A stretch of 64,000 nt of DNA from an uncultured Bordetella sp. (GTDB lineage Bacteria; Pseudomonadota; Gammaproteobacteria; Burkholderiales; SG8-41): assembly GCA_964533495.1 (NCBI GenBank), contig CAZHJU010000001.1, positions 45,124 through 109,123 of the forward strand, given 5' to 3'. Under the pieces are notes generated by a model that worked only from the letters and a program-made list of their open reading frames with translations, was not told the origin of the DNA and made no database searches. Shown in pieces: positions 5,345 through 56,199 of the stretch (position 1 is the first letter of the stretch; each line of letters opens with the position of its first letter). The position numbers and the translations under genes are program-made.

Positions 5345-5496
5345 GGCCCTCCCCAAAGGCCCGACCATGTGCGAGCGCGCCACCCCAGTCTGAATTGCGG
5401 GAAAAGGCCGTCGGCGAAAAACCTTGAAGATTTTTATATGTTTCCCGCGATCTTCGTCAGCTCGGCCGCGGGAAACCGCCCGACCGGACCGGAAGC

Positions 5497-6234
5497 TCAG
5501 CCGCCGCGCCGCGCATTTTTCGAAGGCCAGGGCCAGCGTCCCCCCAATGAGACCGTCACCGAACGACAGGCATTGACCAACAGCAGGGACAGCTGCCGGA
5601 TGTTTGCCGCAGTAAAGCGCTCCCTGGGACCTGACAGCGAAACCGCGCCGTAAAACTCGTTTTCGGGGCCGAATACCGGTGCAGCCACGGCGGCGCAGGC
5701 AGGGTCACGCTCGCCGAAGGAAACGCTGACGACACCGGCATCCTGCCAGGAATCCGCCGTATCCCGCTTTTCGAATGCGCGGATAACAGTGCCTGCCGCA
5801 CCGCGGTCGATGGGCAGCAGATCACCGGCGTGCACGCTGTCGAGCGTCGAGTGCCGGGAGTCCACACGAAACAGGCAAAGCCGCTGCCGGCGGTCATGCC
5901 GCACATGAAACGAAGGACTTTCCGCACCCTGTGCAACCAGCTGCTCCAGCACCGGCAGCACCTGCCCCCTCAGGTGATAGGTGGCCTCGAAGGAGCGACC
6001 CAGACGGCACGCAAGCGGCCCCAGCGCATATTTGCCGTCGGCGCGTGAAACGACCAGGGCAAAGCGTTCCAGCGAGACGATGAGCCGCAGCAGCGTGCTT
6101 TTGTAGAAGCCCGTCTGTCGCGAAAGCTCGGCCAGCGACAGAGGTCCGCCGGCCGCCTCGATTGCGGTAACTATGGTCAGGGCGCGCTCGACTGCCGCCA
6201 CACCCTGTGCATTCGAAGATGTTCTGGTTGCCAA
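5497..6234 (-). CDS. IclR-family transcriptional regulator
   Basis: 245 aa. N-terminal winged HTH is VERALTIVTAIEAAGGPLSLAELSRQTGFYKSTLLRLIVSLE. An IclR-type effector domain follows. Confidence 0.85.
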   Translation of the reverse strand: MATRTSSNAQGVAAVERALTIVTAIEAAGGPLSLAELSRQTGFYKSTLLRLIVSLERFALVVSRADGKYALGPLACRLGRSFEATYHLRGQVLPVLEQLVAQGAESPSFHVRHDRRQRLCLFRVDSRHSTLDSVHAGDLLPIDRGAAGTVIRAFEKRDTADSWQDAGVVSVSFGERDPACAAVAAPVFGPENEFYGAVSLSGPRERFTAANIRQLSLLLVNACRSVTVSLGGRWPWPSKNARRGG

Positions 6235-6271
6235 ATCGTTTCCATGTCCGCGGCTTCCCGGTGCCGCTCAG

Positions 6272-7138
6272 TCACCTGATGACCCTGCTGATCACCGGAT
6301 GATACTGGCCGCCGAAACCCGCGGCGATGGCCCGTTCAAACGTCCGGTCGACCAAGCTGGCCGAATCCGCGTCAAGCCCGGCCGCAGCCGCAAGCTCGAG
6401 CGCATAACGGAGATCCTTGCGCGCGTATTCCACGGAAAAGGCGCGCTCCGGGAATATACCGGGAATCATCGATTTCAGACCATGGTTGCGCAATGCAAAA
6501 CTGTCCCCGGATCCCTTGGCCATCGTCTCGAACAGCAGCCCGCCGTCCAAGCCGACCGAACGGCCGATGGCCAGCGCTTCGGACAGGGCCATGACGGTCT
6601 GGAACAGCACCATGTTGTTCAGTATCTTGACGGCCTGCCCCGCGCCCGCGGCCCCGCAATGGGTGACATCGGTGGCAAAACACCGGAATAGGGGCAGCAC
6701 CCGGTTGAAAACCGCCTGATCCCCTCCGACCATGATCGACAATGTGCCGGCAATGGCCGCCTCGCGGGTGCGCGCCACTGGAGCATCAAGATATGCCGCA
6801 CCGCGTTGCGCGAAACCGGCTTCCAGCTTCCGCGTCAACGGCACCGGCGAGGTGCTGAGATCGACGTAAACCCGCCCCTCGCGCGCCTCAGCCAGCGCTT
6901 CAACAGCGACCGCCTCCAGCGCTTCGGCGGAAGGCAGTGACACGAACACGATATCGGCCTTTGCAATGACCGACGCGACACCGGGGGCGGCTTCCACGCC
7001 ATCGGCGACCAGCCTCATCAAGGGCGTCTGATTGAGATCGAAGGCGATGACCGGCCGGCCGCTTTTCAAGGCCAGATTCCGGCACATCGGTTCGCCCATG
7101 ACGCCCAGCCCAATGAATCCGATCGTTTCACTGCTCAC
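6272..7138 (-). CDS. NAD(P)-dependent oxidoreductase, 3-hydroxyisobutyrate / 2-hydroxy-3-oxopropionate reductase family
   Basis: 288 aa. N-terminal dinucleotide fold is IGFIGLGVMGEPMCRNLA. The C-terminal 6-PGDH-like helical domain pattern is present. Confidence 0.8.
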   Translation of the reverse strand: MSSETIGFIGLGVMGEPMCRNLALKSGRPVIAFDLNQTPLMRLVADGVEAAPGVASVIAKADIVFVSLPSAEALEAVAVEALAEAREGRVYVDLSTSPVPLTRKLEAGFAQRGAAYLDAPVARTREAAIAGTLSIMVGGDQAVFNRVLPLFRCFATDVTHCGAAGAGQAVKILNNMVLFQTVMALSEALAIGRSVGLDGGLLFETMAKGSGDSFALRNHGLKSMIPGIFPERAFSVEYARKDLRYALELAAAAGLDADSASLVDRTFERAIAAGFGGQYHPVISRVIR

Positions 7139-7188
7139 GAGATCTTTCCCCCCGGATGTTCCTGCGTGGTTTGTGGTGTTGCGATTCC

Positions 7189-8166
7189 TTACCGGTGCAC
7201 CATCGGTGCGCCGGCCACCGCCGTCCTGAAGCTGATCAGCCGGTCGTCAAGCAGCGAACCCAGGTACGCCGTTCTGAGATCGGCGCCGCCGAAGGCGATG
7301 CTGGCGATGTTTTTCAGCTCCCTGCTTTTCATGGTGTAGAAGTGCTCGCGACCCATCCGTCCTTCGGCGAGCGCGGTTTCCACGGTGTCGATGTGCGAGG
7401 CATCGCTGTCTTCAAGCAGGAGGCTGGTTTTCCCCGATGGCGTCACGCGGTACAGGCGGTTGCTGACGATGCTGGTCACCCAGAGGCAGCATTCCGCATC
7501 CAGCGCGAACCCGTCCGGGAACGCACCGCGGCCGAATTCGGCGACAACGGCACGCCCCAACAACAGACCGCCCGGTGAAACCCCGAAGCGCGCGACCCGC
7601 CGGCCGAAGGTCTCACTGACGTACAGCGTGTTTCCCTCCGCGTTGATGCGAAGTTCGTTGGCAAAGGCCAGTCCGTCAGCGACGATACGTGCGCCCTTTT
7701 CGTCAACCAGAGCGACAAATCCGTCGGCGACGCTGCTGCGATAGGACAAAAACCGCGGCAGCAGCTTCGTGCTGACAGTGATCCAGATCCGCCCGGCCGC
7801 ATCGCGCAGCACGAAATTCGCGGCTGACAGCGCGACGCCATCGACTTCGAGCAGAAACGGCGTCAGGCTGCCGTCACGGGCAAGCCGCCAGACGCCACCG
7901 CCCTCGCCGATATTGGCAATCAGGAAATCGCCGTTTTCAAGCAGACAGAATCCGTTGGGTACGAATTCGTGTCCAAGCACTTGCGCATGCGCGCCAATGA
8001 CGCTTTGCGAACCGTCCGGCGATATCCGGGTGATGCCCGCGCCGCGGCACGATGCAAAAAGTTCGCCGCTGCCGCAGGCAATGACGCATTCGGGCCGGGC
8101 GAATCCTCTGCCCAGAGTACGGAATGAACCCGGCTCGATCGGCCACGCGGCGTCAAGCTGGATCAT
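7189..8166 (-). CDS. SMP-30/gluconolactonase/LRE-family protein (putative lactonase)
   Basis: 325 aa. Repeated beta-propeller-type segments (GEGGGVWRL..DGS, NELRINAEGNTLYVSET, PDGFALDAECCLWV). ATGA overlap with the upstream ALDH stop. Confidence 0.7.
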   Translation of the reverse strand: MIQLDAAWPIEPGSFRTLGRGFARPECVIACGSGELFASCRGAGITRISPDGSQSVIGAHAQVLGHEFVPNGFCLLENGDFLIANIGEGGGVWRLARDGSLTPFLLEVDGVALSAANFVLRDAAGRIWITVSTKLLPRFLSYRSSVADGFVALVDEKGARIVADGLAFANELRINAEGNTLYVSETFGRRVARFGVSPGGLLLGRAVVAEFGRGAFPDGFALDAECCLWVTSIVSNRLYRVTPSGKTSLLLEDSDASHIDTVETALAEGRMGREHFYTMKSRELKNIASIAFGGADLRTAYLGSLLDDRLISFRTAVAGAPMVHR

Positions 8167-9650
8167 GCCGCGGCCCCCTGCCGGTCTAGCCCCCAGAACA
8201 CGCTTTTGACCTGCTGGTAGAGGCGCATGCCTTCGATGCCTTTTTCACGGCCGATGCCGCTGGATTTGTAGCCCCCGAACGGCGCTGCGATCGACAACTG
8301 CTTGTATGTGTTGATCCACACCGTGCCGGCATCGATTCTGCGGGCCACGCGCCAGGCCTTCTGATAGCTGGAGGTCCAGATGCCGGCCGCCAGCCCGTAC
8401 GCGGTGGCATTGGCCTGGGCCACCAAATCCTCTTCGTCGTCGAAGGGCAGGACGCAGAGCACCGGACCGAATATCTCCTCCTGACAGATCGCGTCGTCAT
8501 TGGTGACGCCGGTTATCACGGTGGGCAGATAAAAAGCGCCGTCGCGGAAACGCCCGTCTGACGGGCGGCTGCCGCCCGTCGCTATGTCAGCGCCTGCCGC
8601 ACGCGCCCTTTCGACGTGGGACTCGACACGCTCGCGGTGCGCGAACGAGGCCATGCTGCCCATTTCCGCGCCGGCCCGATCCGGCAGATCGACACGCAGG
8701 GACTGCGCATGCCGCGTGATCATGTCGAGCACGCGCGCATGGATGGAACGCTCGACGAACAGCCTCGATCCGGCAATGCACGACTGGCCGCTGCCTTCGA
8801 AGATGCCGGCAGCAACCCCCCGCACCGCGGCATCGATGTCGGCGTCGGCGAACACGATGTGCGGTGATTTGCCGCCGAGTTCGAGCGCCGCCGGAATCAG
8901 ACGCATTGCTGCGGCCCCGGCGATCCGGCGGCCGCTTTCGGTGCCTCCGGTGAAAGACACCATGCCGACTCCCGGATGACTGACCAGAGCGGCGCCGACG
9001 GCGGCACCGTCACCCGGCAGCACGTTCAGCAGACCGGGGGGCAATCCCGCTTCCAGCGCGATGCGTCCGAGCGCAAGCGCCGTCGACGGCGTCACTTCGG
9101 AAGGCTTGAGAATGACGGCATTCCCGGCCGCCAGCGCCGGCGCGACTTTCTGAGCCTCCATCGTCAGCGGAGAGTTCCATGGCGTGATGGCGGCAACCAC
9201 GCCATAGGGCTCGTGCACGCTCATCGAAAGATAATTTCCGCGCGGCGGATTCAGGACATCACCGGCGGATTCGCAGACGGCGGCGTAGTAACGGAAGGTG
9301 GTGGCGGCCGATTTCGCCTGTGCCCGGCATTCCTGCAGAACCTTGCCGTTCTCGCGCATCTGCAGCTGCGCGAGCTCTTCGGATGCGCTGTCGATCCCGC
9401 CCGCAATCGACGACAGCAAGCGCCCGCGTTCGTGGGGCAGCATGTTCCGCCACCCCGCCTGCCCGGCGGCGCGCCGCGCCGCCCTGACCGCATCGTCGGC
9501 ATCGCTTGCAGAGGCGGCACAGACCGCATAGTTGATGCGGCCGTTCGCAGGATCAACCGGCAGCAAGGGTTCGCCGCCGTTGTCTATCCAGCGGCCGTCA
9601 ATCAGGAACGGCCTTCTCTCCGCGGCACCTGCGGCGGTGGATGAATCCAT
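8163..9650 (-). CDS. NAD(P)+-dependent aldehyde dehydrogenase
   Basis: 495 aa. ALDH motifs are FTGGTESGRRI, LELGGKSPHIVF and the catalytic-Cys segment EGSGQSCIAGSR. Confidence 0.9.
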   Translation of the reverse strand: MDSSTAAGAAERRPFLIDGRWIDNGGEPLLPVDPANGRINYAVCAASASDADDAVRAARRAAGQAGWRNMLPHERGRLLSSIAGGIDSASEELAQLQMRENGKVLQECRAQAKSAATTFRYYAAVCESAGDVLNPPRGNYLSMSVHEPYGVVAAITPWNSPLTMEAQKVAPALAAGNAVILKPSEVTPSTALALGRIALEAGLPPGLLNVLPGDGAAVGAALVSHPGVGMVSFTGGTESGRRIAGAAAMRLIPAALELGGKSPHIVFADADIDAAVRGVAAGIFEGSGQSCIAGSRLFVERSIHARVLDMITRHAQSLRVDLPDRAGAEMGSMASFAHRERVESHVERARAAGADIATGGSRPSDGRFRDGAFYLPTVITGVTNDDAICQEEIFGPVLCVLPFDDEEDLVAQANATAYGLAAGIWTSSYQKAWRVARRIDAGTVWINTYKQLSIAAPFGGYKSSGIGREKGIEGMRLYQQVKSVFWGLDRQGAAA

Positions 9651-9653
9651 GGA

Positions 9654-11999: not shown

Positions 12000-12147
12000 T
12001 TGATTTCTGCTCCTCGCGCAGGAAGAACACATCCTGAAAACCCCCGACCCACACGGCGGCACGCCAGCTTTCCGGCATGCCGCCAACGATCGTCATTATT
12101 GACAATCATACAAGCGGCAATCACACTCTTCAACTTTATAGAATAAC

Positions 12148-12166
12148 TGTTCTGTTAGGCAGAACA
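12148..12166. promoter_or_regulatory. 7-5-7 inverted repeat in a divergent promoter region (candidate operator)
   Basis: tgttctg-ttagg-cagaaca. It sits in the 198-bp gap between the sulfatase start (11999, minus) and the Bug gene start (12198, plus), in a locally AT-richer stretch. Confidence 0.35.
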
Positions 12167-12197
12167 ATGGAAACCCCAACCGAGAGGAGAAAATCCA

Positions 12198-13205
12198 ATG
12201 GGAAGATCAAATGACACAAGCCGCCGTCCATCATCGAAAACGGCGGCGGCCGCAATGGCCATGCTGCTGGCTGGCGCCGCGGCATCCAGCACGCCGGCGG
12301 CCGGCCAGGAATACCCGGCGAAGCCGATACGCCTGATCGTCCCCTTTGCGCCCGGCGGCGGGACCGACCGGGTGGGCAGGACAATGGCCGCCAAGATGTC
12401 GCAACCCCTCAAACAGCAGATGATCGTCGACAATCGCCCCGGCGCGGCCACGGTCATAGGCTCCGAAATCGTGGCAAGAGCCGCTCCGGACGGATATACG
12501 CTTCTGCTGTGCGCGCTCCCGCATGCGACCAATCCGAGTCTGCTGAAAAAACTGCCCTATGACACCCTGCGCGACTTCGCACCGATCACGCTGACGGCGA
12601 AGATTCCTTCCGTGCTTCTGGTCAACGCGAAAGTGCCGACAAAATCCATAAAAGAACTGGTTGCGCTCTCGAAATCGACCGCCGCAGGGCTGAACTACGG
12701 AACGCCTGGCAACGGCACGGCCCCCCATCTCGCAATGGAGCTTTTCAAGATCGCCAGCGGAATGAATGCGGCGCATATCCCTTACAAGGGCGCAGGTCCG
12801 CAGGTCACTGCCTTGGTATCCGGCCAGATTGATCTCGCGTTCGCCACGATATCAACCGCGCGCACTCATGTAGGAACCGGCAGGCTTCGTGCGCTGGCAA
12901 TCGCCACCCTGCAGAAATCCACCGCCCTCCCCGATGTGCCGACCCTGTCGGAAAGCGGCTACCCCGGATTCGAGGCTTACGCCTGGTTCGGGCTGCTGGC
13001 ACCCGCAGGAACGCCGCGGCGCATCATCCAGACCCTTAACCGGGAGGCGAATGCCGCGCTCAACCTGCCCGATGTCCGGGCTTCCTTTGAGGCCGACGGC
13101 ATCGATGCCGCACCGGGCAGCATCGATGCGCTGGACAAGCACATCAGAAGCGAGATCGATAAATGGACGAAAGTCATCCGTCAGGCAAACATAACCCCTG
13201 AATGA
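12198..13205 (+). CDS. Bug/TctC-family TTT substrate-binding protein
   Basis: 335 aa. RBS gagaggag lies upstream. Signal peptide, then QEYPAKPIRLIVPFAPGGGTD. Confidence 0.9.
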   Translation: MGRSNDTSRRPSSKTAAAAMAMLLAGAAASSTPAAGQEYPAKPIRLIVPFAPGGGTDRVGRTMAAKMSQPLKQQMIVDNRPGAATVIGSEIVARAAPDGYTLLLCALPHATNPSLLKKLPYDTLRDFAPITLTAKIPSVLLVNAKVPTKSIKELVALSKSTAAGLNYGTPGNGTAPHLAMELFKIASGMNAAHIPYKGAGPQVTALVSGQIDLAFATISTARTHVGTGRLRALAIATLQKSTALPDVPTLSESGYPGFEAYAWFGLLAPAGTPRRIIQTLNREANAALNLPDVRASFEADGIDAAPGSIDALDKHIRSEIDKWTKVIRQANITPE

Positions 13206-13227
13206 CCACGTCACTCGCGGAACTCCG

Positions 13228-14076: not shown

Positions 14077-14107
14077 TTCACTGTCCGCGGCAAACGCCCT
14101 GCTCAAG

Positions 14108-14611: not shown

Positions 14612-14622
14612 GGCGGAATTCC

Positions 14623-15180: not shown

Positions 15181-15201
15181 GCGGCGCTCTTCTGCACGGA
15201 T

Positions 15202-16182: not shown

Positions 16183-16314
16183 AATGAATGCGTCTTCTGC
16201 ATCATTGATCCCGGCGCGACGGCGCCGGCAATGGCGGAACTATGTGACTGGAAATGGCGGCGCGACAAACGGTCATTTCGCAAACCATGAATGCATGAAT
16301 TGCATGCATAAACG

Positions 16315-17286
16315 ATGAACAGCACGCGCGATCTGCCCGCCCTTGATCTGCTGAAGGCCTTCGAGGCCGCGGCCCGCCACCTGTCGTTCACGCGCGCAGG
16401 CGCGGAACTGTGTCTCAGCCAGTCGGCGGTGAGCCGGCAGATCCGGCAGCTTGAAACCCAACTCGGGCTGCCGCTGTTCGTCCGCCGCACGCGCGCGCTG
16501 CTGCTGACCGAGGCGGGCCGGCGCTATTTCCGCGACGTCAGTCAGGCGCTGCACCAGTTGCGCGAGGCCGGCGCGAACCTGCGGGCCGCGCGCGGCGACC
16601 GGGTGGTGACGGTGACGACGGCAATGACCTTCGCCTCGCTGTGGCTGGTGCCGCAGCTCGCGGATTTTCAGCAGCGGCATCCGGACATCGCGGTGCACGT
16701 CGCCGCCGACAACAGCGTGCTCGACCTCGAGCGCGAGCGCATGGACGTGGCGATCCGGTACTCGACGCACCGCCTCGCCGGCCCCGACGCGCTGCGACTG
16801 CTCGGCGAACGCGTGCTGCCGGTGTGCAGCCCGAAGCTGCCCGGCCTGAAGAAACTGCGCGCGCCAGCGGACCTGAAGGGTTTCGTGCTGCTCGAGTTCG
16901 AAGACCCGCAGCAGCTGACGCCCTGGCTGACCTGGGCGGCATGGCTGGAGGCGATGCGTGCGCCGTCGCCCGCGGCGAAGGGCATGCTGCGTTTCAGCCA
17001 CTACGACATGATGCTGCGCACCGCGCTCAACGGCCAGGGCATCGGACTGGGTCGCCTGCCGCTGATCTCGGCGCTGCTCGACGACGGCCTGCTGGTCGCG
17101 CCGCTGGCCGACCGCCGCCACAGCATCCCGACCCCGGACCGCGCCTACTGGCTTATCAGCCCGCCCGCCGCGCGCGAACGTCCGGAGGTGCAGACCTTCA
17201 TGCAGTGGATCCGGGCGCGCATGGCGGCGCTGGAGGGGGGCGGCAGGAAATGCCATGTCGGAGTAAGCACTGACGATCAAATATAA
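16315..17286 (+). CDS. LysR-family transcriptional regulator (GcvA-like)
   Basis: 323 aa. HTH is LDLLKAFEAAARHLSFTRAGAELCLSQSAVSRQIRQLE. Divergent from the DUF2917-cupin gene. Confidence 0.9.
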   Translation: MNSTRDLPALDLLKAFEAAARHLSFTRAGAELCLSQSAVSRQIRQLETQLGLPLFVRRTRALLLTEAGRRYFRDVSQALHQLREAGANLRAARGDRVVTVTTAMTFASLWLVPQLADFQQRHPDIAVHVAADNSVLDLERERMDVAIRYSTHRLAGPDALRLLGERVLPVCSPKLPGLKKLRAPADLKGFVLLEFEDPQQLTPWLTWAAWLEAMRAPSPAAKGMLRFSHYDMMLRTALNGQGIGLGRLPLISALLDDGLLVAPLADRRHSIPTPDRAYWLISPPAARERPEVQTFMQWIRARMAALEGGGRKCHVGVSTDDQI

Positions 17287-17319
17287 ATATTTGTTTTTAT
17301 TAGTATTTTTTATAAATTA
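17279..17319 (+). repeat. AT-rich dispersed repeat, copy A
   Basis: aaatataaatatTTGTTTTTATTagtattttttataaatta. It overlaps the LysR stop codon (TAA 17284-17286). Shares its core with copies at 18451, 38835, 56157, 29803(rc) and 46328(rc). Confidence 0.75.
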
Positions 17320-18356
17320 CCGGCATGCTCTGGCAGCACAGCGGAAATCCGGCACCGTGACGGCAACGATGCCCACGGCACGACCATTCGGCGGTGGCGC
17401 AGCGGCACCCGATCCCGACCGTGCGCGTCCGGCAACCCCGGCCGTTGCGCCCTCACACAGACAGGCGCCGGATCGGCAAAATCACCGATCGACATGCGGA
17501 TCAGCTTGGTCACCTCGCGGCACGCCAGCGAAAGCGGGTGACGCTTCGAGGTGGACAGTGTGACCGTGCGGGTGATGCCCGGACTGACGATCCTTGCCCC
17601 CTGCAATCGTCCCTCCTGCATTTCCCGGGCAATCGCCTGCCGCCACAATATGGCGTAGACGCCCCCCTCGGCCGCGAGGTTCTTCTGCGTGGCCAGCGCA
17701 TCGCACTGGATCAGCACGCGCAGGGAAACGCCGCGCTAACGCGCGAGCTGGTCGAGAACGATGCGCATCGCGTTGGGCGTGCCCGGCAGGACCAGAGGCA
17801 ATTCATGCAGCTGCGCGAACTCGACGCTGCCCTTGCGCAGCAGCGGATCGCCGGCGGAGCCAATCAGGTAGCTGTCGATCGTCACCAGCGGATGGTCCTC
17901 CGGACGCGCATCGCTGCCGTAGCGAAAAAGAATCGCGATGTCGATCTGGCCGGATTCAAGCCATTTGTTCAGTTGCCCCCCGGAACCGTCAAAAATGCGC
18001 AGCTGGATCCCCGGGAACAGTTTCCGCGCGCGGCCAAACAGCTGCGTCACCAAGGGATGCGCGATCGACGGCATGACGCCGACGCGCACCAGTCCGTTCG
18101 GCACGCCGACATCCCCCCGGGCCGAACGCGTGAGTTCATCGGCACTCTCCAGCAATTCCTTGACGCGGGGCAGCAACCGCTTGCCACCTTCGGTCAGGAC
18201 GACACCGCGCCCCGTGCGGTGAAAAAGCGGGCCCCGGCATTCCCGCTCCAGGCTGGCAATCTGCCTGCTGATGACGGATTGCGAAGTCTTGCGCAGACCT
18301 GCGGCGCGGAACACGAGAAAGCGGTGGACTGTAATGAAACCCGGTATAACCCACAA
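17310..18356 (-). pseudogene. LysR-family regulator interrupted by an in-frame TAG
   Basis: ORFs 17736-18356 and 17310-17717 are in the same frame. They are separated by TAG at 17733-17735 (...VLDQLAR*RGVSLRVLIQCDALATQKN...). HTH is QSVISRQIASLE. The only available start is TTG. The true C-terminal extent is uncertain. Confidence 0.65.
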
Positions 18357-18450
18357 GACTATTGAGGAGTTATACAGACATAACTTTCAAGACTGCTGGG
18401 GCCGCTGCCACGAACGGCCGGGGTGACTGACGGAAGCGCGGAAGGGGATC

Positions 18451-18489
18451 TTCATAACTATTTGTTTTCATTGATATTTTTTGATTTTT
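18451..18489 (+). repeat. AT-rich dispersed repeat, copy B
   Basis: ttcataactatTTGTTTTcATTgatattttttgattttt. Same orientation as copy A. It encodes, on the other strand, the last residues ...KSKNINENK* and the stop of the hydrolase gene. Confidence 0.75.
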
Positions 18490-20703: not shown

Positions 20704-20704
20704 C

Positions 20705-21670
20705 TCAATTGCCCTTGATTTTTCCGGCGGTGATGACCTTGCCCCATTTCTCGTAATCCGCCTTGTGGTACGCCGCCAGCGCGGCAGGCGTCCCGCCGGA
20801 AGGTTCGGCACCGTCGAGAGCCAGCGCTTTCCGGATGTCGTCGGTGGCCAGCACCTTGTTGCCGGCGGCATTGACCCGCTCGACCGCCGCGGCGGGCAGG
20901 CCGGCCGGGCCATAAAGCCCCCACCATTGGCTGGATTCGAAATCCCTGATCGTTTCGGCAACCGTGGGCAGTTCCGGCGCGATCGCGATGCGCTTCGCGC
21001 TGGTCACCGCCAGCGCTTTCAGCCGTCCGGCGCGCACCTGCGCCGAAACGCTGGGATAGGCGGCGAACAGCACCGAGACGTTGCCGGCGACGGTGTCGAT
21101 GGTCGCCGGCGCGGCGCCCTTGTACGGCACGTGCAGCATGCTCACGCCGGCGCGCTGGGAAAACAGCTCGCCGGTGAGATGGCTCAGCGTGCCGGCGCCG
21201 TTGGAAGCGTAGGCGAGCGCGCCGGGTTTCGATTTCGCCAGCGCGATGAAGGCCTTGACCGAATTCACCGGCACCGAGGGATGCACGGTCATCACGTTCG
21301 GCGCGTCGCCGATCTTGACGACCGGCGTGAAGCTGGTGAGCACATCATAGGGCGCCTTCGCGCCGAGATGCGGGTTGATCGACAACACGCTCGACGAAGC
21401 GAACAGCAGCGTGTAACCGTCGGCAGGCGCGCGCGAAGCGACTTCGCCGCCGATCATGCCGCCGGCCCCGCCGCGGTTGTCGACGATGATCTGCTGGCCG
21501 AGCAGCGGCGACAGGCGCGTAGTGAAATGGCGCGCGACGATGTCGGCGGCGCCGCCGGCGGGAAACGGCACGATGACGCGCACGGGCTTTTCGGGATAAC
21601 CCTGGGCAATCGCGGCGAGCGGGAAAATGGCGGCGAGCAGCGCCATTACGGGAATGCGCGGGGATTTCAT
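20705..21670 (-). CDS. Bug/TctC-family TTT substrate-binding protein
   Basis: ORF 20705-21802. Start moved to ATG 21670 (MKSPRIPVMALLAAIFPLAAIAQGYPEKPVRVIVPFPAGG). Confidence 0.9.
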   Translation of the reverse strand: MKSPRIPVMALLAAIFPLAAIAQGYPEKPVRVIVPFPAGGAADIVARHFTTRLSPLLGQQIIVDNRGGAGGMIGGEVASRAPADGYTLLFASSSVLSINPHLGAKAPYDVLTSFTPVVKIGDAPNVMTVHPSVPVNSVKAFIALAKSKPGALAYASNGAGTLSHLTGELFSQRAGVSMLHVPYKGAAPATIDTVAGNVSVLFAAYPSVSAQVRAGRLKALAVTSAKRIAIAPELPTVAETIRDFESSQWWGLYGPAGLPAAAVERVNAAGNKVLATDDIRKALALDGAEPSGGTPAALAAYHKADYEKWGKVITAGKIKGN

Positions 21671-21909
21671 GGCAGGACCTTTCGATACGGATGCTGGATG
21701 TCGCGGCAGCCCGTGGCAGCGCGAACGGGGAATGATTCCGGTGTTTCGTTCCGCTCCGACGCCGGGCGGATGCGCCATTGTAAACCGCAATGTCCACGAC
21801 ATTCACCGGCAAAGACCAGCATATGAGCGCCGCGGGAACCGGCGCTCAAGGACATTCACCTTCCTGAAATACCGATGATCGGAATGCCGGCGTCCATCGT
21901 GACGGCCTC

Positions 21910-25053: not shown

Positions 25054-30776
<5,723 letters not shown>

Positions 30777-30780
<4 letters not shown>

Positions 30781-38809: not shown

Positions 38810-38834
38810 ATTTTCTCCACTAACGGATGAAATG

Positions 38835-38870
38835 ACTATAAGTATTTGTTTTTATTAATTATTTTATGAT
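38835..38870 (+). repeat. AT-rich dispersed repeat, copy C
   Basis: actataagtatTTGTTTTTATTaattattttatgat. It lies in the 49-bp gap between the fbp start (38809) and the tyrS stop (38859-38861). Its right end overlaps the last tyrS codons (..VIIK*). Confidence 0.75.
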
Positions 38871-44221: not shown

Positions 44222-44225
44222 GCAA

Positions 44226-45266: not shown

Positions 45267-45326
45267 GTCCTGATCATTTCCTTCCCTGATCTGCCATCCG
45301 TCATCCGGGCACCTGGGCCAGAGACG

Positions 45327-45353: not shown

Positions 45354-45378
45354 CGAACTTCCGTTGCGCGAATAACCG

Positions 45379-45771: not shown

Positions 45772-45777
45772 GGTCTT

Positions 45778-46212: not shown

Positions 46213-46253
46213 GCTTGATCCTGCACGTTCTCGGTGATTCAGGGAAACCGCGA

Positions 46254-46283
46254 ATTCTATGGGAAATCAAGCGGATGTGTCAA
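46254..46283 (-). promoter_or_regulatory. near-consensus sigma70-type promoter for rplM-rpsI
   Basis: The minus strand reads TTGACA (46283-46278), an 18-nt spacer, then TAGAAT (46259-46254). It lies about 40 nt upstream of the rplM ATG. Confidence 0.55.
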
Positions 46284-46327
46284 ACTGCCGTACTGCAGCA
46301 AAAACACTGCACCATCAGCCGCGCCCG

Positions 46328-46363
46328 AAAATAAGTTATTTAAAAACAATATCTTATCAATGA
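46328..46363 (-). repeat. AT-rich dispersed repeat, copy F (more divergent)
   Basis: The reverse complement reads cattgataagataTTGTTTTTAaataacttatttt. It abuts or overlaps the ATG (46360) of the DUF218 gene, in the divergent region shared with rplM. Confidence 0.55.
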
Positions 46364-47124: not shown

Positions 47125-47139
47125 CCGCGGGGAGCACCC

Positions 47140-47562: not shown

Positions 47563-47577
47563 TCCGCGCGGCAGCGG

Positions 47578-48201: not shown

Positions 48202-48206
48202 GATCT

Positions 48207-49004: not shown

Positions 49005-50022
49005 GATTCTTCGTGAAGGCGACGAACTGGTCGAGTTTCCTGCGCGCGGCGCCGCTTTCCAGAACGGCCAGGGCGTTTCCGACGCCCGCCGCGAGGGTCG
49101 GCGCCAATCCCGCGACGTAGATGCTCGCCCCGGCATTGAGCGCGACAATGTCGCGCGCCGCGCCCGGCCTGTTTTCCAGCGCGCCGAGCAGCATGTCCCG
49201 CGACTGCTCGACGCCTTCGACGCGAATCGCCGCGTTGCTGTGGGTCTTCAGTCCGACATCCGCGGGGGCCACCATGTATTCGCGCACCTGGCCGTCCTTC
49301 AGTTCGCCCACCGCCGTGGGACCACTGATCGACAGTTCATCCAGCCCTTCGAGGCCGTGCACGATCATCACCCGGCGGCTGCCCAGCCGCTGCAGCACCC
49401 GTGCCTGGATGCCGACCAGATCGGGATGGAACACGCCCATCACCTGCTGCTTCGCCCCGGCCGGGTTGGTCAGCGGCCCGAGGATGTTGAATATGGTTTT
49501 CACGCCGAGCTCGCGGCGCACCGGCGCGGCATGCTTCATCGCGCTGTGATGGTTGGGCGCGAACATGAAGCCGATCCCGGTCTCGGCGATGGAGCGGGCC
49601 ACCGCCTCCGGCTTCAGGTTGATGTCGGCCCCGAGCAGTTCCAGCACGTCGGCGCTGCCCGACTTGCTGGAAACCGACCGCCCGCCGTGTTTGGCGATTT
49701 TTGCGCCGGCCGCCGCCGCGACGAACATCGCCGCGGTGGACACGTTGAAGGTGTGGGCGGAATCGCCGCCGGTGCCGCAGGTGTCGATCAGTTCGGGCAC
49801 GTCCGGCACCGGCACCGTGGTGGCAAACTCGCGCATCACGGTCGCGGCGGCGGCGATTTCGCCGATGGTTTCCTTTTTCACGCGCAGCCCGGCGATGATC
49901 GCGGCGATCAGCACCGGCGACACTTCGCCGCTCATGATCTGCCGCATCAGCGACAGCATCTCGTCGTGGAATATCTCGCGATGCTCGATGATACGCGCCA
50001 GCGCCTCCTGCGGTTTCATCAC
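48997..50022 (-). CDS. trpD: anthranilate phosphoribosyltransferase
   Basis: 341 aa. Contains [17 protein letters not shown] and [18 protein letters not shown]. 8-nt overlap with trpC. Confidence 0.9.
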
Positions 50023-50588
50023 CGTTTCTCCTCAAGGAAATTTCTCAGCATCTGGTGGCCGTGCTCGGTCAGTATCGATTCCGGGTGGAACTGCACGCCC
50101 TCGACTGCCAGCGTCCTGTGGCGCACGCCCATGATTTCGCCGTCATCGGTCCAGGCGGTGATTTCAAGGCAGTCCGGGACAGTCTCACGCTCGATCACCA
50201 GCGAGTGGTAACGCGTCGCCGAAAACGGCTGCGGCAGTCCGCGGAACACGCCGGCACCTTCGTGCCGGATCGGCGAAGTCTTGCCGTGCATCAGTTGCTT
50301 CGCATGGACGATTTTCCCGCCGAATGCCTGCCCGATGCTCTGGTGGCCAAGACAAACGCCAAGGATCGGGATTTTCCCGGAAAACGCCTTGATCGCCGGC
50401 ACTGATACCCCTGCTTCGTTCGGCGTGCACGGCCCCGGGGAAACAACGATGCGCGCGGGCTTCATCCGCGCGATGTCGTCGAGCGTGATCTCGTCGTTGC
50501 GGTGCACGGCAACCTCTTCGCCCAGTTCTCCGAAGTACTGCACCAGGTTGTAGGTAAAAGAGTCGTAGTTGTCGATCATCAGCAGCAT
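50019..50588 (-). CDS. trpG: anthranilate synthase component II (glutamine amidotransferase)
   Basis: 189 aa. Contains [25 protein letters not shown] and GVQFHPES. Confidence 0.9.
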
Positions 50589-50598
50589 GGCGATCCCC

Positions 50599-52074
50599 TC
50601 AGTCCAGGCGCGTGTCGAGACCGGCTTCGGCGATCTCTGCCGCGCGCAGCAGGGCCCGCGCCTTGTTCTGCGTTTCCTGCCATTCGGCCTCGGGCTCGGA
50701 ATCCGCGACCACGCCGCCGCCGGCCTGCACGTGCAGCCGGCCGTCCTTGATCACCGCGGTGCGCAGCGCAATCGCGACATCCATGTTGCCGTGGAAACCG
50801 AGATAGCCGACCGCTCCGGCGTAAATGCTGCGCTTGACCGGCTCGAGCTCGTCGATGATCTCCATCGCCCGCACCTTGGGCGCGCCGGACACCGTGCCCG
50901 CCGGAAAAGTCGCGCGCAGCACGTCGATCGCGCCCAGCCCCGGCTTCAGTTTCGCCTCGACGCTGGACACGATGTGCATCACGTGCGAATAACGCTCGAT
51001 CACCATCTGCTCGGTGACCCTGACGCTGCCGGTCTGCGCGACGCGCCCCGCATCGTTGCGGCCGAGATCGACCAGCATGATGTGCTCGGCGCGCTCCTTC
51101 GCGTCCGCCAGCAGTTCGGCAGCCAGCGCCGCGTCCTCTTCCGGTGTCGCGCCGCGGCGGCGCGTCCCGGCGATCGGCCTCACGGTGACGACGTCGCCTT
51201 CGAGCCGCGCCAGGATTTCGGGCGATGCGCCGACCACGTGGAAATCGCCGAAATTGAAGCAGAACATGTACGGCGAGGGATTCAGCGCCCGCAAGGCGCG
51301 GTACAGCGACAGCGGCGAGGCATGGAAGGGCTTGCTCATGCGCTGCGAAGGCACCACTTGCATGATGTCGCCCTCGAAAATGTATTCCTTCGCGCGCTCC
51401 ACCGCCTTGTGATACGCCGCCTGGCCGAAGCCGGATACCGCGGGTTCGGACCGGACCTGCGGGCTTTCCAGCAGCGTTACCGGCGCCCGCAGCTTTTCGA
51501 GCAGCGCCGCCAGGCGCGCCCGGGCCGCGGCCCAGGCGCCGGGTTTGCCGGGTTCGGCATACACCACCAGCGACAGCTTCCCGGAAAGGTTGTCGACAAT
51601 GGCGATTTCCTCCGACACCAGCAGCAGGATGTCCGGAGTGCCCAGCTCGTCGCGCTTGTCGCTGTGCGCCAGCCGTTTTTCGATGTAGCGCACGGTGTCG
51701 TAGCCGAAGTAGCCCACCAGCCCGCCGCAGAACCGCGGCAACCGTGGATCGGTTGCCACCTTGAAACGCTGCAGGTATTTCTCGACGAATGCCAGCGGAT
51801 CGTCGGCCTGTTCACGCAGCGTTTCGCGGCCATCGCGGATTTCGGTGCAGCAGTGGTCACGCACTTCGATGCGGGTGCCGGCGGCCAGTCCGATGAAGGA
51901 ATAGCGCCCGAAGCGTTCGCCGCCGACCACCGACTCCAGCAGGTAGCTGTACGGCTGGTTGGCAAGCTTCAGGTAGATCGACAGCGGCGTGTCAAGGTCG
52001 GCGAAGGTTTCGAGCACCACCGGCACGCGGTTGTAGCCCGCGGCGGCGAGTCGATTGAATTCCGATTCAGTCAT
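50599..52074 (-). CDS. trpE: anthranilate synthase component I
   Basis: ORF 50599-52128. Start moved to ATG 52074 ([19 protein letters not shown]...). Contains [30 protein letters not shown] and GGGVVADS. Confidence 0.9.
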
Positions 52075-52206
52075 GTCTTGCTCCACAAAAAACGACGGGT
52101 ACGAAACGAAACAACAGCAGTCCGGCAATACGCGATCAGCAACGCCAATCGCGACGCCAGCACCGGCCAGCGGCGGCCGTTTCGGACCTTGTGGAGGTGA
52201 ACACGA

Positions 52207-52893
52207 TTAATCTTTTTTAATCAAAGGGATACAGTCAACAAGCGAGCCTACTATAGCATCAACGTCCAAGCTCTGCACAGGCTGCCCTTCGTTGTAGCCA
52301 TAGGGCACGCAGAACACCGGGCAGCCCGCCGCACGCGCCGCGCGCGCGTCGTTCCCGGAATCGCCGATCATCAGCATCCGGTCCGGTGGCACGCCGAATT
52401 GCGCGCTGGCATGCAGCAGTTGCGCCGGGTCCGGCTTCTTGTGCGGCAGCGTGTCCCCGGAAATGGTCTGTGCAAAAAAATGCGCCAGCCCCATGCGCTC
52501 CAGCAGCGGCCCGGTGAAGGCGCCGGACTTGTTGGTCACGCAGGCCAGCGGGAATCCACCGGCCCGGAACTGCTCCAGCCCCTCGCGCACGCCGGGGTAG
52601 ATCGTCGTATGCCGGCCGTTGACTTCGGCATAAAAGCGCTCGAACACCGGCAGCGCCGCCGCCAGCGCCGCCGCATCGGCGCAACCTTCGATATCGCGCG
52701 CCAGTGCGCGTTCGACCAGCCGCGGAATGCCCTTGCCAACGAAGGTGCACACGGTCTCCAGCGGTAACTGCGCATGCCCCAGATGCCCGAGCATCAGGTT
52801 GGTCGCCGCGGCAAGATCGGCAATGGTGTCGAGCAGCGTGCCGTCGAGGTCGATCATCACGGCGCGCACGGGAATCGGAAACGTTTTTTTCAT
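52207..52893 (-). CDS. gph: phosphoglycolate phosphatase (HAD family)
   Basis: ORF 52207-53442. Start moved to ATG 52893 (MKKTFPIPVRAVMIDLDGTLLDT...). HAD motifs are DLDGT, TNK and GDSGND. The last codons (PLIKKD*) are unusually AT-rich. Confidence 0.85.
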   Translation of the reverse strand: MKKTFPIPVRAVMIDLDGTLLDTIADLAAATNLMLGHLGHAQLPLETVCTFVGKGIPRLVERALARDIEGCADAAALAAALPVFERFYAEVNGRHTTIYPGVREGLEQFRAGGFPLACVTNKSGAFTGPLLERMGLAHFFAQTISGDTLPHKKPDPAQLLHASAQFGVPPDRMLMIGDSGNDARAARAAGCPVFCVPYGYNEGQPVQSLDVDAIVGSLVDCIPLIKKD

Positions 52894-52931
52894 GATTCGG
52901 TTGCAGGGAGCGGCGCCGCGGCGCCGGGTGT

Positions 52932-53594
52932 TCAGGATCCGGAAAGCGCAGCGCGCATTGCCGCGATGGTGGCCTTGTAGTCCTTCTGTCCGAAGATCGC
53001 CGAACCGGCGACGAAGGTGTCGGCCCCGGCTTGCGCGATTTCCGCGATGTTGCCGGCCTTGACCCCACCGTCCACTTCCAGCCAGATGTCGCGCCCGCTG
53101 CCGGCGATGCGCTCGCGGACCGCGGCGAGTTTCTGCAGCGCCGACGGGATGAAGGCCTGCCCGCCGAAGCCGGGATTGACCGACATGATCAGCACCAGGT
53201 CGAGCTTGTCGAGGACATGATCGAGGTAATGCAGCGGCGTCGCCGGATTGAACACCAGGCCGGCCTTGCAGCCGTGCTCCCTGATCAGCCCGATGGTGCG
53301 GTCGATGTGCTCGGACGCTTCGGGATGGAATGAAATGATGTCGGCGCCGGCCTTCGCGAAATCCGGCACGATGCGATCCACCGGCTTCACCATCAGGTGC
53401 ACGTCGATGGGCACCTTGACCAGCGGCCGGATCGCCTCGCACACCAGCGGTCCGATCGTCAGGTTGGGCACATAGTGATTGTCCATGACGTCGAAATGGA
53501 TCAGGTCGGCACCGGCGGCGACCACCGACTGCACCTCCTCGCCGAGGCGGGCGAAATCCGCGGACAGGATGCTGGGCGCGATGCGGAAGGTCAT
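52932..53594 (-). CDS. rpe: ribulose-phosphate 3-epimerase
   Basis: ORF 52932-54071. Start moved to ATG 53594 ([20 protein letters not shown]...). Contains [14 protein letters not shown] and [10 protein letters not shown]. Confidence 0.9.
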
Positions 53595-53693
53595 GGCTCG
53601 ATCCGGGAAATGGGTCGGGCCGATTCTACCCGTTCCGGACGGCACGGACATGCGGAACTTCCTCGGCCGTGCCGCGAGTGCGAGAATAGGCGC

Positions 53694-54074
53694 ATGGCCG
53701 AAAACAGATACCACTTCACCGTCGTGCCGCGGGCAAGCTACATTCCGGAACAATCGGATGCGGAAGCCGGACGCTACGCCTTTTCCTACACCGTCACCAT
53801 CACCAATACCGGCGCGGTGCCCGCGCAGCTGCTCAGCCGGCACTGGATCATCACCGACGCCAACAACCTGGTGCAGGAAGTCAAGGGCCAGGGTGTGGTC
53901 GGCGCCCAGCCGAAACTGAAGCCGGGCGAGAGTTTCGAGTATTCCAGCGGCTCGCTGCTGGCAACGCCGGTCGGGACCATGCGCGGCAGCTACCAGATGC
54001 TGGCCGAGGACGGCACGCGCTTCGACGCGGCGATTCCCGAGTTCACGCTGTCGATGCCGCGGGTGCTGCATTAA
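53694..54074 (+). CDS. apaG: ApaG-domain protein
   Basis: ORF 53397-54074. Start moved to ATG 53694 ([22 protein letters not shown]...[13 protein letters not shown]...[13 protein letters not shown]). Confidence 0.85.
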
Positions 54075-54095
54075 GGCCTTCCGGCATCCGCGGGC

Positions 54096-54851
54096 ATGAG
54101 CCTACGCGCCAGTTACACGCTGATCGCGCCGCTGTACGACTGGCTGATCGGCCCGGCACTGGGCCCGGTCCGCAGGCGCAGCCTGGCGCGCCTGCCCGGC
54201 GATGGGCGGGCGCACATCCTGATCGACGGCGCAGGCACCGGCCTCGACCTGCCGTCACTGCCGGCGGCGCACCGCTACACCGCCCTCGACCTGACGCGCG
54301 CGATGCTGCGCAAGGGATTGCCGCGCGGCAGCCATCTGGACATCCGCTGGGTCCAGGGCGACAGCCAGCGGCTGCCCTTTGCCGACGGCGTTTTCGACCA
54401 TGTACTGCTGCACCTGATACTCGCCATCGTGCCCGACACCCGCGCCGCCCTGGAAGAAGCCGCGCGCGTGGTCAGGACGGGAGGCCGTCTGTTCGTGCTC
54501 GACAAATTCCTGCGTCCCGGCGAAACGGCATGGCTGCGGCGGATGGTCAACCCGCTGGCCCGGCACATCGCCACCCGCACCAACGTGGTGTTCGAGGAAG
54601 CGCTTGCCGGAATCCGGCAGTTGCGCGTGATCAGCGACGAACCCGCGCTCGCCGGAGGATGGTTCCGGATGATCACGCTGGAAAAAACCGGCATTCAGGG
54701 TTTCCCGGACTCGTCCGGATCGTCATCATCGTCGCGGCGCGGCCAGGTCAGCCAGACGATACCGCCCAGCAACGCAGCCGCGACCACGGCTTCGATCAGG
54801 TACCACAACAATCCGGTCATGATTCAGGCTTTCCAAGTTTCCGATGCATAG
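54096..54851 (+). CDS. class I SAM-dependent methyltransferase (UbiE/COQ5-like fold)
   Basis: 251 aa. Contains [12 protein letters not shown] and [20 protein letters not shown]. The last ~45 aa ([12 protein letters not shown]...) are low-complexity, and the true end may differ. 8-nt overlap with the mltA start. Confidence 0.7.
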
Positions 54852-56115
54852 CTTCGACTTTAACAAATTACCGTTGCGCATCATCGCCGCCGCCGTCGCC
54901 GTGGCAATCGCCGCGACGGCCTGCCGGTCAACGCCGGAAAAGGCGCCGCCCGCCGCCGCGGAACCGGCCGCCGTGCCGGCTCCGGCACCCGTGCCGCTGC
55001 CCGTACCACCGCCGGCAACCGAAGCCGCGCCGCCGTCAGCCCGGCCGACCCCCGCGCTCACCGGCAACCACCTGCGCCGCGGCCAGTGGACGGAACTGCC
55101 CGGCTGGCAGGACGACGATCCGGCAGCCGCGTGGAACGCATTCCTCGTCAGTTGCGGCACGCTGAAAACACAGGCGGCATGGCGCGCGGTCTGCACCGAG
55201 GCGCTCGCCGCGCCGCGGCCGGACCGCAAAGCGGCGCGGCAGTTCTTCGAGGCGAACTTCACGCCGTACCAACTGCTGCAGGCCGACGGGCGCGGCGAAG
55301 GCCTCGCCACGGGATATTACGAACCGCTGCTGCGCGGCAGCCGCAAACCGACGGCACGTTACCGTTATCCGCTGTACGGCGTCCCCGACGACCTAGTCAC
55401 GCTGGACCTGCCGGATTTCGGCATCGACGCCCGCGAACCGCGGCTGCGCGGACGGCTCGACGGCAAACGCGTGCTGCCCTATTACGAACGCGCGCAGATC
55501 GAGGCCGGACTGGCCGCGGTCAAAGGCCGGGAAATCGCCTGGGTCGACGATCCGGTGGAATTGTTCTTCCTGCAGATCCAGGGCTCGGGGCGCATCGATC
55601 TCGATGGCGGCGGCGTGCTGCGCGTCGGCTTCGCCGACCACAACGGCCACCCCTACCGCTCCATCGGCCGCCTGCTGATCGACCGCGGCGAGCTGGCGGC
55701 GGAACGCGCCTCGATGCAGGGCATCAAGGCCTGGGCAAGACAGAACCCGGACAAGCTGCGTGAAGTGCTCGATCACAACCCGCGCTACATCTTTTTCCGC
55801 GAACTGCCGGAAGGACTCGGCGGTCCGCTCGGCGCCCAGGGCGTGCCGCTGACGGCGCGCCGTTCGATCGCCGCGGACCCGCGTTATGTGCCGCTGGGCG
55901 CCCCCGTGTTTCTCGCCACCACCTGGCCGCTCAGCAACCGGCCGCTGCAGCAGCTGATGCTGGCCCAGGACACGGGCTCCGCAATCCGTGGCCCGGTGCG
56001 CGCCGATTTTTTCTGGGGCTACGGCGATGAAGCCGGACGCGAGGCCGGACGCATGAAACAGGCCTTGCGGATGTGGCTGCTGCTGCCCCACGGTTATCCG
56101 GTGAACGGACCGTGA
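54844..56115 (+). CDS. mltA: membrane-bound lytic murein transglycosylase A
   Basis: 423 aa. Lipobox is IAATAC. MltA-type segments are TGYYEP.L.GS...YPLY and QGSGRI. 3D-domain tail is AQDTGSAIRGPVRADFFWG. Confidence 0.85.
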   Translation: MHSFDFNKLPLRIIAAAVAVAIAATACRSTPEKAPPAAAEPAAVPAPAPVPLPVPPPATEAAPPSARPTPALTGNHLRRGQWTELPGWQDDDPAAAWNAFLVSCGTLKTQAAWRAVCTEALAAPRPDRKAARQFFEANFTPYQLLQADGRGEGLATGYYEPLLRGSRKPTARYRYPLYGVPDDLVTLDLPDFGIDAREPRLRGRLDGKRVLPYYERAQIEAGLAAVKGREIAWVDDPVELFFLQIQGSGRIDLDGGGVLRVGFADHNGHPYRSIGRLLIDRGELAAERASMQGIKAWARQNPDKLREVLDHNPRYIFFRELPEGLGGPLGAQGVPLTARRSIAADPRYVPLGAPVFLATTWPLSNRPLQQLMLAQDTGSAIRGPVRADFFWGYGDEAGREAGRMKQALRMWLLLPHGYPVNGP

Positions 56116-56156
56116 TGGCCTGCGCCGCCCGGATGTGAGCGCACGCCAACTCTCGT

Positions 56157-56199
56157 GACTTATTATAAGTACTTGTTTTTATTGATATTTTTATAAATT
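56157..56199 (+). repeat. AT-rich dispersed repeat, copy D
   Basis: acttattataagtacTTGTTTTTATTGATatttttataaatt. It lies in the convergent gap between the mltA stop (56115) and the cyclase stop (56288). Confidence 0.75.

Follow-up and report, generated by a model that had tools for sequence, protein, structure and literature searches.

Six AT-rich repeats in a GC-rich window

We analyzed a stretch of 64,000 nucleotides (here called the window) from an uncultured Bordetella sp. of the Burkholderiales (GenBank assembly GCA_964533495.1, contig CAZHJU010000001.1, positions 45,124 to 109,123), in which six short AT-rich repeats, designated copies A to F, are scattered over DNA with a GC content of 60 to 72% along its whole length. 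An earlier sequence-only reading had taken these repeats for a single dispersed family, and this held: all six copies were found at the positions that it had given, and further copies occur far outside the window. Its description of AT-rich patches in GC-rich DNA was borne out by a scan for 30-nt stretches with an A+T content of at least 77%, which returned exactly five patches (A, B, C, F, and D). The 11-mer TTGTTTTTATT, which had been named as the core, occurs five times when up to one mismatch is allowed (0.08 expected), namely, in copies A, B, C, D, and E; it does belong to the conserved unit but makes up only part of it, and it is the opposite strand that is informative. The exact 14-mer said to be common to D and E is present as well (TTGTTTTTATTGAT). 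Two suggested partial copies were discarded: positions 52206-52225 encode the conserved C terminus of a HAD hydrolase, and the core is absent from 5424-5443.

Copies A, B, C, and D constitute a single direct-repeat family. Their own scores against a profile made from them (E value of about 1e-11) are circular, because the profile was built from the same four copies, and copies E and F scored weakly against it (E values of 0.03 and 11, respectively). Both were recovered by other evidence. Copy F belongs to the members with a type 2 tail (described below), and the orthologous position in Limnobacter olei is occupied by a canonical copy. Copy E keeps the determinant positions and is an AT-rich run in which 8 codons in a row end in A, within a gene whose GC content at third codon positions (GC3) is 0.87; the run is also found in orthologues.

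The gene contexts of the copies, checked with GC3-based gene calls and Pfam, agreed with the mixed contexts that had been reported for them. Copy A (17277-17312, minus strand; taaaaaatactaataa AAACAA ATAT TTA tatttga) forms the entire spacer between a LysR gene (16315-17286, plus strand) and a convergent LysR pseudogene fragment (17310-17717, minus strand); the TAA stop codon of the former is copy A's own TAA, and the latter stops in the tail of the copy. Copy B (18448-18483, minus strand; caaaaaatatcaatga AAACAA ATAG TTA tgaagat) encodes the last 10 or so residues (EKSKNINENK, then stop) of an alpha/beta hydrolase open reading frame (ORF; from 18458, minus strand), which reads through it, and is located about 90 nt upstream of the LysR pseudogene part at 17736-18356 (minus strand). 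The LysR pseudogene is thus bracketed by the two copies, which are direct repeats with a distance of 1171 bp between them. This LysR-type regulator is split into two minus-strand ORFs, of which 17736-18356 comprises the helix-turn-helix and the start of the substrate domain and 17310-17717 comprises the remainder; it is probably a pseudogene (17310-18356).

Copy C (38832-38867, minus strand; ataaaataattaataa AAACAA ATAC TTA tagtcat) starts at the stop codon of TyrRS (38859-38861) and ends 22 nt ahead of the FBPase ATG (38809). Copy D (56159-56194, minus strand; ataaaaatatcaataa AAACAA GTAC TTA taataag) lies between the convergent genes for MltA (ending at 56115, plus strand) and a GAF-PAS-cyclase (ending at 56288, minus strand). 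Copy E (29806-29841, plus strand; gaaaaatcatcaataa AAACAA CATG TTG tgagact) is in frame within a 1908-aa double-UvrA ORF (25054-30780, plus strand), in a variable linker past the fourth Walker A motif, where its A-ending codons (REKSSIKTT) retain the A-tract, CAA, and TTR. Copy F (46328-46363, plus strand; aaaataagttatttaa AAACAA TATC TTA tcaatga), which has a type 2 tail and is drifting, is situated between the divergent genes rplM and DUF218; the DUF218 ATG (46361) overlaps its 3' edge, and a promoter-like TTGACA..TAGAAT of rplM lies about 45 nt away on the other strand, copy F being upstream. This good sigma-70-like promoter sequence upstream of rplM (TTGACA-N18-TAGAAT, 46255-46290, minus strand) has a counterpart in L. 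olei in the form of a similar TAGAAT box.

The family outside the window

To follow the family beyond the window, one genome per bacterial species was scanned for the exact pattern TAYTTGTTTTYATTRRTWWTTT. The scan returned at least 114 stretches. Most of the matches listed came from GC-rich contigs of more than 30 species-level Burkholderiales/Betaproteobacteria metagenome-assembled genomes (MAGs) and from L. olei, and the remaining matches listed were chance occurrences in AT-rich genomes. A logo of 85 copies displayed a discrete block, with background composition up to position -14 and from position +29. The trinucleotide TAA, which was outside the search pattern, was invariant in 82 to 85 of these 85 copies. 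Under a mismatch-tolerant definition, the element consists of a 16-nt core, TAA[G/C]TATTTGTTTTTA, an AT-rich tail of two types, and a loosely conserved AT-rich left arm, and the AT-rich block measures about 35 to 40 bp. When the copies that had recruited their own locus were left out, the density was about 1 per 20 to 25 kb, and some MAGs reached 1 per 6 to 8 kb, which implies hundreds of copies per genome.

No member of the family was found in 347 kb around the TyrRS genes of the nearest metagenomic relatives (63 to 76% amino acid identity). PLSDB plasmids yielded chance matches in AT-rich replicons only, and the matches in viral contigs were mostly chance occurrences in AT-rich phages. A family of viral contigs from IMG/VR with 43 to 49% GC (L204, L207, L234, L242, L270, L279, and L304) carries TAAGTATTTGTTTTTATTGATGTTAATCAATATCCATAATATACA, which has 21 nt in common with the element and is followed by a promoter-like TTGATG..N17..CATAAT; this may be a chance likeness or a related site of the type discussed below. 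An adjacency to tRNA genes, hinted at by one viral match, was not supported. Searches of the literature by sequence and by topic returned nothing on this element. The organism of the window appears to be rarely sampled, as its exact ribosomal protein L13 is recorded solely in two short Logan contigs (SRR16798008 and SRR16797981).

Gene contexts and absence of structure

Among 110 copies, the flanking genes were arranged, relative to the orientation of the element, in tandem on the minus strand in 23 cases and on the plus strand in 20, convergently in 17, and divergently in 8. Within 60 nt, gene ends face an element 87 times and gene starts face it 54 times, and start codons can adjoin either edge. 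The copies are almost wholly intergenic, copy E being the one exception seen, and some are found inside likely operons (between two M16 peptidase genes and at the ABC ATPase/permease, leuB/asd, and PrpD/Htd2 junctions). Where a gene ends toward an element, its stop codon is located within the element in about 70% of cases: the core's own TAA is the stop codon of 13 of 45 to 47 gene ends, and genes on the opposite side stop at the core TTA or in the tail. With TAA at the start of the core and TTA at its end, the element as read from its sequence supplies stop codons for genes arriving from either side. It likewise supplies adjoining start codons with an apparently unstructured, A/U-rich RNA leader that has no Shine-Dalgarno sequence, and such a leader would explain why the element is tolerated inside operons.

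The element showed no fold of its own (folding z-score of -1.2), and there was no excess of hairpins within 45 nt on either side of the copies. Its ends, read directly, are not inverted repeats, and no consistent target duplication was detected at any boundary pair tried. The genes near the copies included no transposase or RAYT-like gene, and no neighbor recurred except the abundant TctC family. These results agree with the earlier statement that the repeats are not classical terminators, repetitive extragenic palindromic (REP) sequences, or miniature inverted-repeat transposable elements (MITEs), and both of the latter identities were rejected on the absence of target duplication, inverted repeats, fold, and transposase.

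A transcription signal, i.e., a promoter, an intrinsic or factor-dependent terminator, or a regulon operator, would account for the AT richness, for the TATAAT-like left arm on the minus strand and the T-rich plus strand, and for the frequent location at gene ends or just upstream of starts. We regard this explanation as highly improbable. The copies occupy all four gene configurations (25% convergent) as well as operon interiors, so that the earlier conclusion that no single transcriptional role fits them stands. Scanning of copy D revealed neither a sigma-70 promoter nor an intrinsic terminator, no hairpins occur at or beside the copies, and, on the side to which a promoter would point, roughly half of the copies have a gene end. 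No consistent -35/-10 pair was found on either strand, and the -10-like arm is independent of context, being no better kept where it faces a gene start. A regulon operator was rejected as well: the neighboring genes have no function in common and are ordinary metabolic genes.

Two further associations were examined and rejected. Orientation of the copies displayed no bias with respect to GC skew (31 versus 41), which speaks against a replication-oriented motif of the Chi, KOPS, or Ter type. A link to the expanded TctC/Bug family was not supported either, as its genes made up 13% of the element's neighbors and 11% of all genes. The window holds four TctC/Bug periplasmic binding-protein paralogues (235-1209, 1320-2429, 12198-13205, and 20705-21802), and the family accounts for about 11% of the genes in the element-bearing MAG loci (many of L004 to L113).

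Orthologous copies and their history

Syntenic relatives of the window were found via homologues of ribosomal protein L13. Their nucleotide identity to the window was 87 to 89% (L317, L318, L319, and L321) and 79% (L322; GCA_006365115.1). Copy F was present in all syntenic relatives found in this way, with orthologues in L317, L321, L322, and, in canonical form, L. olei (L027). Orthologues of copy C follow TyrRS in L318 and L322, copy D has a canonical orthologue in L317, and the copy E segment is also found in the orthologues L324 and L325. The length of TyrRS is identical with or without the element. At the TyrRS locus, an empty site was sought among metagenomic relatives, but these lack the family altogether and do not keep the synteny. 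At the ABC ATPase/permease junction, the element constitutes the whole spacer in five species (L061, L069, L326, L327/8, and L329), whereas the spacer in two outgroup clades is short and GC rich, with the stop and start positions unchanged. The double variant TTTGATTTAATTGA occurs at three nonorthologous loci in three MAGs. No gain or loss of copies was observed among species at 80 to 90% nucleotide identity over about 60 kb of synteny. Taken together, the filled and empty sites, the in-frame copy E, the recurrent TTTGATTTAATTGA variant, and the absence of gain or loss show, as far as sequence comparison can, that the copies arose as inserted units and were very stable afterwards.

The copies look inserted as units, yet they are without transposon hallmarks. 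A nonautonomous mobile element or solo transposon end, which would have no host function and would persist in harmless niches at gene boundaries, is an explanation that we consider unlikely, although several observations fit it. Many insertion sequence and transposon ends contain a site for integration host factor (IHF), and the element has sharp edges. At the filled and empty ABC ATPase/permease junctions, the entire spacer was replaced; copy D has no counterpart within 82 nt of MltA in L322, one copy is in frame within a coding sequence, and the TTTGATTTAATTGA variant recurs at unrelated loci. The built-in, outward-facing stop codons, which terminate neighboring genes, would also suit such an element. 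Against it stand the missing terminal inverted repeats, target duplication, hairpin, and nearby transposase, as well as the lack of gain or loss among close species. In addition, CAA and TTR are specifically kept in orthologous copies while neighboring positions drift, which would point to selection on binding and not to mere youth of the copies. At the PrpD/Htd2 junction, a T at position 2 of the motif described below is inherited, which argues against homogenization by gene conversion. A recombination or insertion target or a small mobile remnant, two of the roles that the sequence-only reading had listed, may describe the origin of the copies but leaves the selective conservation of CA and TT unexplained.

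A cassette boundary or recombination site was not supported: loci with several copies elsewhere are mixed in orientation, and the junction of a two-gene deletion is located 10 to 15 nt outside the left arm of copy C. The window is without the Pyr_redox_2 and PMSR genes that L322 (17444-19270) has between TyrRS and FBPase (about 38810-38830 in the window); the alignment of L318 to the window is likewise lost just beyond TyrRS.

Correspondence with the IHF consensus

Known IHF sites have the consensus WATCARnnnnTTR in one half and, in some cases, a tract of 4 to 6 A's in the other half; the lambda H' site is 35 bp long, and TTR is shared by all known IHF sites (bioRxiv 10.1101/382655). CA and TT are the core determinants of IHF binding, and affinity depends on AT-rich surroundings, which raise it (PMC11724364).

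On the opposite strand, the consensus of the element is AAAA(A) TATCAATAA AA(A/T)CAA ATA(C/G) TTA. Its layout is an A-tract, about 9 nt (usually TATCAATAA), WA(A/T)CAR, four looser positions (N4), TTR, and a few A/T pairs. For the register of the A-tract relative to lambda H', we used the alignment attributed to Rice et al. (1996); the H' string itself was confirmed. The pattern WAWCARNNNNTTR has 7 matches in the window (1.34 expected), and six of them are exactly copies A to F. Composition-matched shuffles of the 40-mer contained WAWCARNNNNTTR in 3.2% of cases, and in 0.37% they contained it together with an in-register A4 tract. In GC-rich DNA at 63415-63427 (minus strand), AATCAGCGGCTTG fits the strict IHF consensus WATCARNNNNTTR; it has no A-tract and is not a member of the family, and one such match is expected by chance.

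Variability was counted over the 49 to 50 copies that had not brought in their own locus, with W taken as position 0. All 49 copies had A or T at W0, the expected bases at A1, C3, A4, T10, and T11, and a purine at position 12, and 43 of them had a purine at R5. The only common change was at position 2, where 38 copies have A and 11 have the T of the consensus; consequently, the specified positions matched at 8 of 9 in 78% of the copies and at 9 of 9 in 22%. The four N4 positions held 32 of 67 mismatches and seven specified positions held 2 (permutation P = 0.003), and N4 still has a preferred sequence, ATAC. An A was present at each of positions -14 to -11 in 37 to 46 of the 49 copies (75 to 94%), in the same register as the A6 tract of lambda H'. 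The block extends from about -16 to +19 with background composition outside, and these 35 bp or so correspond to one IHF footprint.

In six orthologous series, several members of which had been recruited by motif scan, 21 of the 23 members retain WAWCAA and TTR, and it is N4 and the flanks that vary. The series at the TyrRS locus has ATAC, TAAC, and TAAG at N4 with TTA, TTA, and TTG, respectively, and the in-coding copy E follows the same pattern of conservation (AAACAA CATG TTG). In orthologous copies that had seemed half diverged, the changes sit in N4 or exchange A and G at the R of TTR, so that the IHF reading resolves this earlier puzzle.

A DNA uptake signal, comparable to those of Neisseriaceae (DNA uptake sequences [DUS]) and Pasteurellaceae (uptake signal sequences [USS]), would consist of a core and an AT-rich flank favored by the competence machinery and kept by uptake-biased recombination. 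The orientation independence of the element, its occurrence in many species of one clade and not outside, its core with a weakly conserved AT-rich tail, and its conservation irrespective of local gene context are in line with this idea. We nevertheless consider it very unlikely. The density is 10- to 20-fold below that of known uptake sequences, the copies are almost wholly intergenic, and a 35-bp AT block is not attainable by point mutation in GC-rich DNA. The pattern of conserved and variable positions follows the IHF consensus, and there is no reason why an uptake receptor should impose it. In the literature searched, no paper connected such Burkholderiales with uptake sequences.

The element could instead be the site of another lineage-specific DNA-binding protein, be it some other nucleoid protein or a domesticated transposase of the kind that RAYT represents for REPs, in which case the likeness to IHF sites would be coincidental. 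The 16-nt core, the TCAATAA spacer, and the N4 positions (A, T, A, and C/G in 73 to 92%) exceed what IHF needs, and position 2 is off the IHF consensus in 78% of the copies. The family is also limited to one clade, with none in the 347 kb of TyrRS-related loci, whereas IHF is distributed far more widely. However, the consensus, the register of the A-tract, the 35-bp length, and the placement of the variable positions all agree with IHF, the shuffle frequency (0.4%) and the permutation result (P = 0.003) provide two separate lines of evidence, and no candidate gene recurs beside the copies. We therefore regard another protein as an improbable binder.

Stand-alone IHF sites as the favored interpretation

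Of the three candidate roles put forward by the sequence-only reading, a site for a nucleoid-associated protein is favored by the consensus, A-tract register, length, and position-wise variability, which are those expected of an H'-type IHF site. With the breadth, anatomy, conservation, and contexts of the family as described above, we infer IHF as its binder: each AT-rich patch is probably a stand-alone, high-affinity H'-type site for IHF or a very similar DNABII heterodimer. By analogy to the E. coli IHF-H' model, IHF would wrap the whole element of about 35 bp, introduce two kinks with a spacing of about 9 bp, and clamp the A-tract on one flank and TTR on the other, thereby bending the DNA by about 160 degrees. 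Because the copies are nearly the sole strongly AT-rich sequences in a chromosome of about 65% GC, they should be occupied most of the time. Placed at about 1 per 6 to 25 kb in short noncoding gaps, the sites may fix sharp bends at gene boundaries, and these bends could act as architectural or topological boundary points, as might be supposed from the E. coli RIB/RIP elements discussed below.

Several findings weigh against this interpretation. The assignment to IHF rests on a match to its consensus, and position 2 of that consensus (T) is A in 78% of the copies. Conservation of N4 and of the TCAATAA spacer goes beyond what recognition by IHF would by itself require, and this speaks for a shared origin of the copies through copying, for an additional constraint, or for another protein. 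Sites for IHF are usually degenerate, so that a 16-mer that hardly varies over hundreds of copies would be uncommon for this protein. In copy F and its orthologues, positions other than CAA and TTR change in a nearly neutral manner. A tblastn search with E. coli IhfA and IhfB gave no match in the 64-kb window or the fetched loci, which represent only a small fraction of any one genome; IHF is general in Proteobacteria. The IHF reading also leaves the spread of the copies unaccounted for, and the cellular role even of the E. coli RIB/RIP elements is unsettled.

A more far-reaching scenario, which we put forward tentatively and consider doubtful as a whole, is that a single optimized IHF footprint of 35 bp was copied to hundreds of gene boundaries across a GC-rich, mostly uncultured clade of Burkholderiales. 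It would have spread without inverted repeats, target duplication, or a transposase, and selection on the IHF contacts would keep the copies, which would serve as genome-wide fixed bends at gene boundaries, as stop codon donors, and, within operons, as translation leaders without a Shine-Dalgarno sequence.

Comparison with known elements

The likeness to lambda H'-type IHF sites comprises the core match with invariant C, A, TT, and R and looser positions at the consensus N, the register of the A-tract (-14 to -9), a setting of AT-rich DNA, and a length of about 35 bp. The element differs from H' in that position 2 is usually A and not T, and it differs from known IHF sites in general in that N4 and the spacer are far more uniform and a nearly identical module is repeated in hundreds of copies.

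Two repeat families with IHF sites provide parallels. In PMC3333891 and PMC3184786, E. coli RIB/RIP (the BIME-1 linker) is described as repeated IHF sites at the 3' ends of transcription units, a statement that these papers trace to Boccard & Prentki 1993 and Oppenheim 1993, and Correia elements are said to carry an IHF site. RIB/RIP (in BIME-1, two REPs around an IHF linker) resembles the element in comprising repeated, dispersed, intergenic IHF-type sites that are rare between divergent genes; gene ends outnumber starts beside the element, but its copies are also found upstream of genes. In contrast to RIB/RIP, the element has no flanking REP palindromes or hairpin, stands out as an AT-rich island from a GC-rich genome, extends over stop and start codons, and occurs inside operons. 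Moreover, RIB/RIP is species specific, whereas the element is common to many species and genera. The Correia elements of Neisseria, which are MITEs, share with it the character of Betaproteobacteria repeats with an IHF-type site at gene boundaries.

Correia elements are about 100 to 150 bp long and have terminal inverted repeats and a TA duplication, whereas the element measures 35 to 40 bp and has neither terminal inverted repeats nor a target duplication. It resembles REPs and REPINs in copy number (hundreds), size (20 to 40 bp), and preference for tandem and convergent spacers with few divergent ones; however, those are GC-rich imperfect palindromes mobilized by RAYT, and the element is unstructured and AT rich with no RAYT-like gene seen. 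Mycobacterial interspersed repetitive units (MIRUs) are short intercistronic sequences that overlap at either end with a stop or start codon of the neighboring operon genes. The element shares these overlaps in operons; unlike MIRUs, which are tandem, GC rich, and variable in number, it is present as a single copy per locus. DUS and USS occur about once per kb, coding DNA included, in contrast to about 1 per 6 to 25 kb in almost wholly intergenic DNA for the element. The sequences lack the defining features of RIB/RIP (REP palindromes) and of Correia elements (terminal inverted repeats and target duplication). We thus conclude with moderate confidence that the element consists of an IHF-type module and nothing else, is highly uniform, and recurs at dispersed gene boundaries in a GC-rich clade of Burkholderiales.

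To our knowledge, repeated IHF sites have been known only within larger elements, namely, the E. coli BIME-1 linkers and the Correia MITEs, and their function is still unsettled. Here, the predicted IHF-type site would be the entire element, set off sharply from GC-rich DNA in dozens of species and apparently under position-specific purifying selection. The existence of a cultured carrier (Limnobacter) opens the question of whether fixed IHF bends at gene boundaries organize the chromosome or insulate transcription units and the question of how so small a sequence, free of hallmarks, has spread. For annotation, the element provides neighboring genes with stop codons, with C-terminal tails, and with start contexts that have no Shine-Dalgarno sequence; gene callers will therefore mis-set ends and starts in its neighborhood.

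Other features of the window

An Rfam scan of the whole 64-kb window matched no tRNA, rRNA, or other family. The 1908-aa ORF that hosts copy E consists of two UvrA-like halves with the Walker A motif GVSGSGKS at residues 40, 666, 1024, and 1559, and its homologues carry the name excinuclease ABC subunit A. At 30365-30448, the same ORF contains an in-frame, GC-rich, near-perfect inverted repeat with 37-nt arms that are 86% complementary. This repeat is also found in the homologue P0177 and not in the other aligned homologues, and it looks like a REP-like palindrome inserted into the coding linker. Together with copy E, one gene would thus host two different in-frame repeat insertions.

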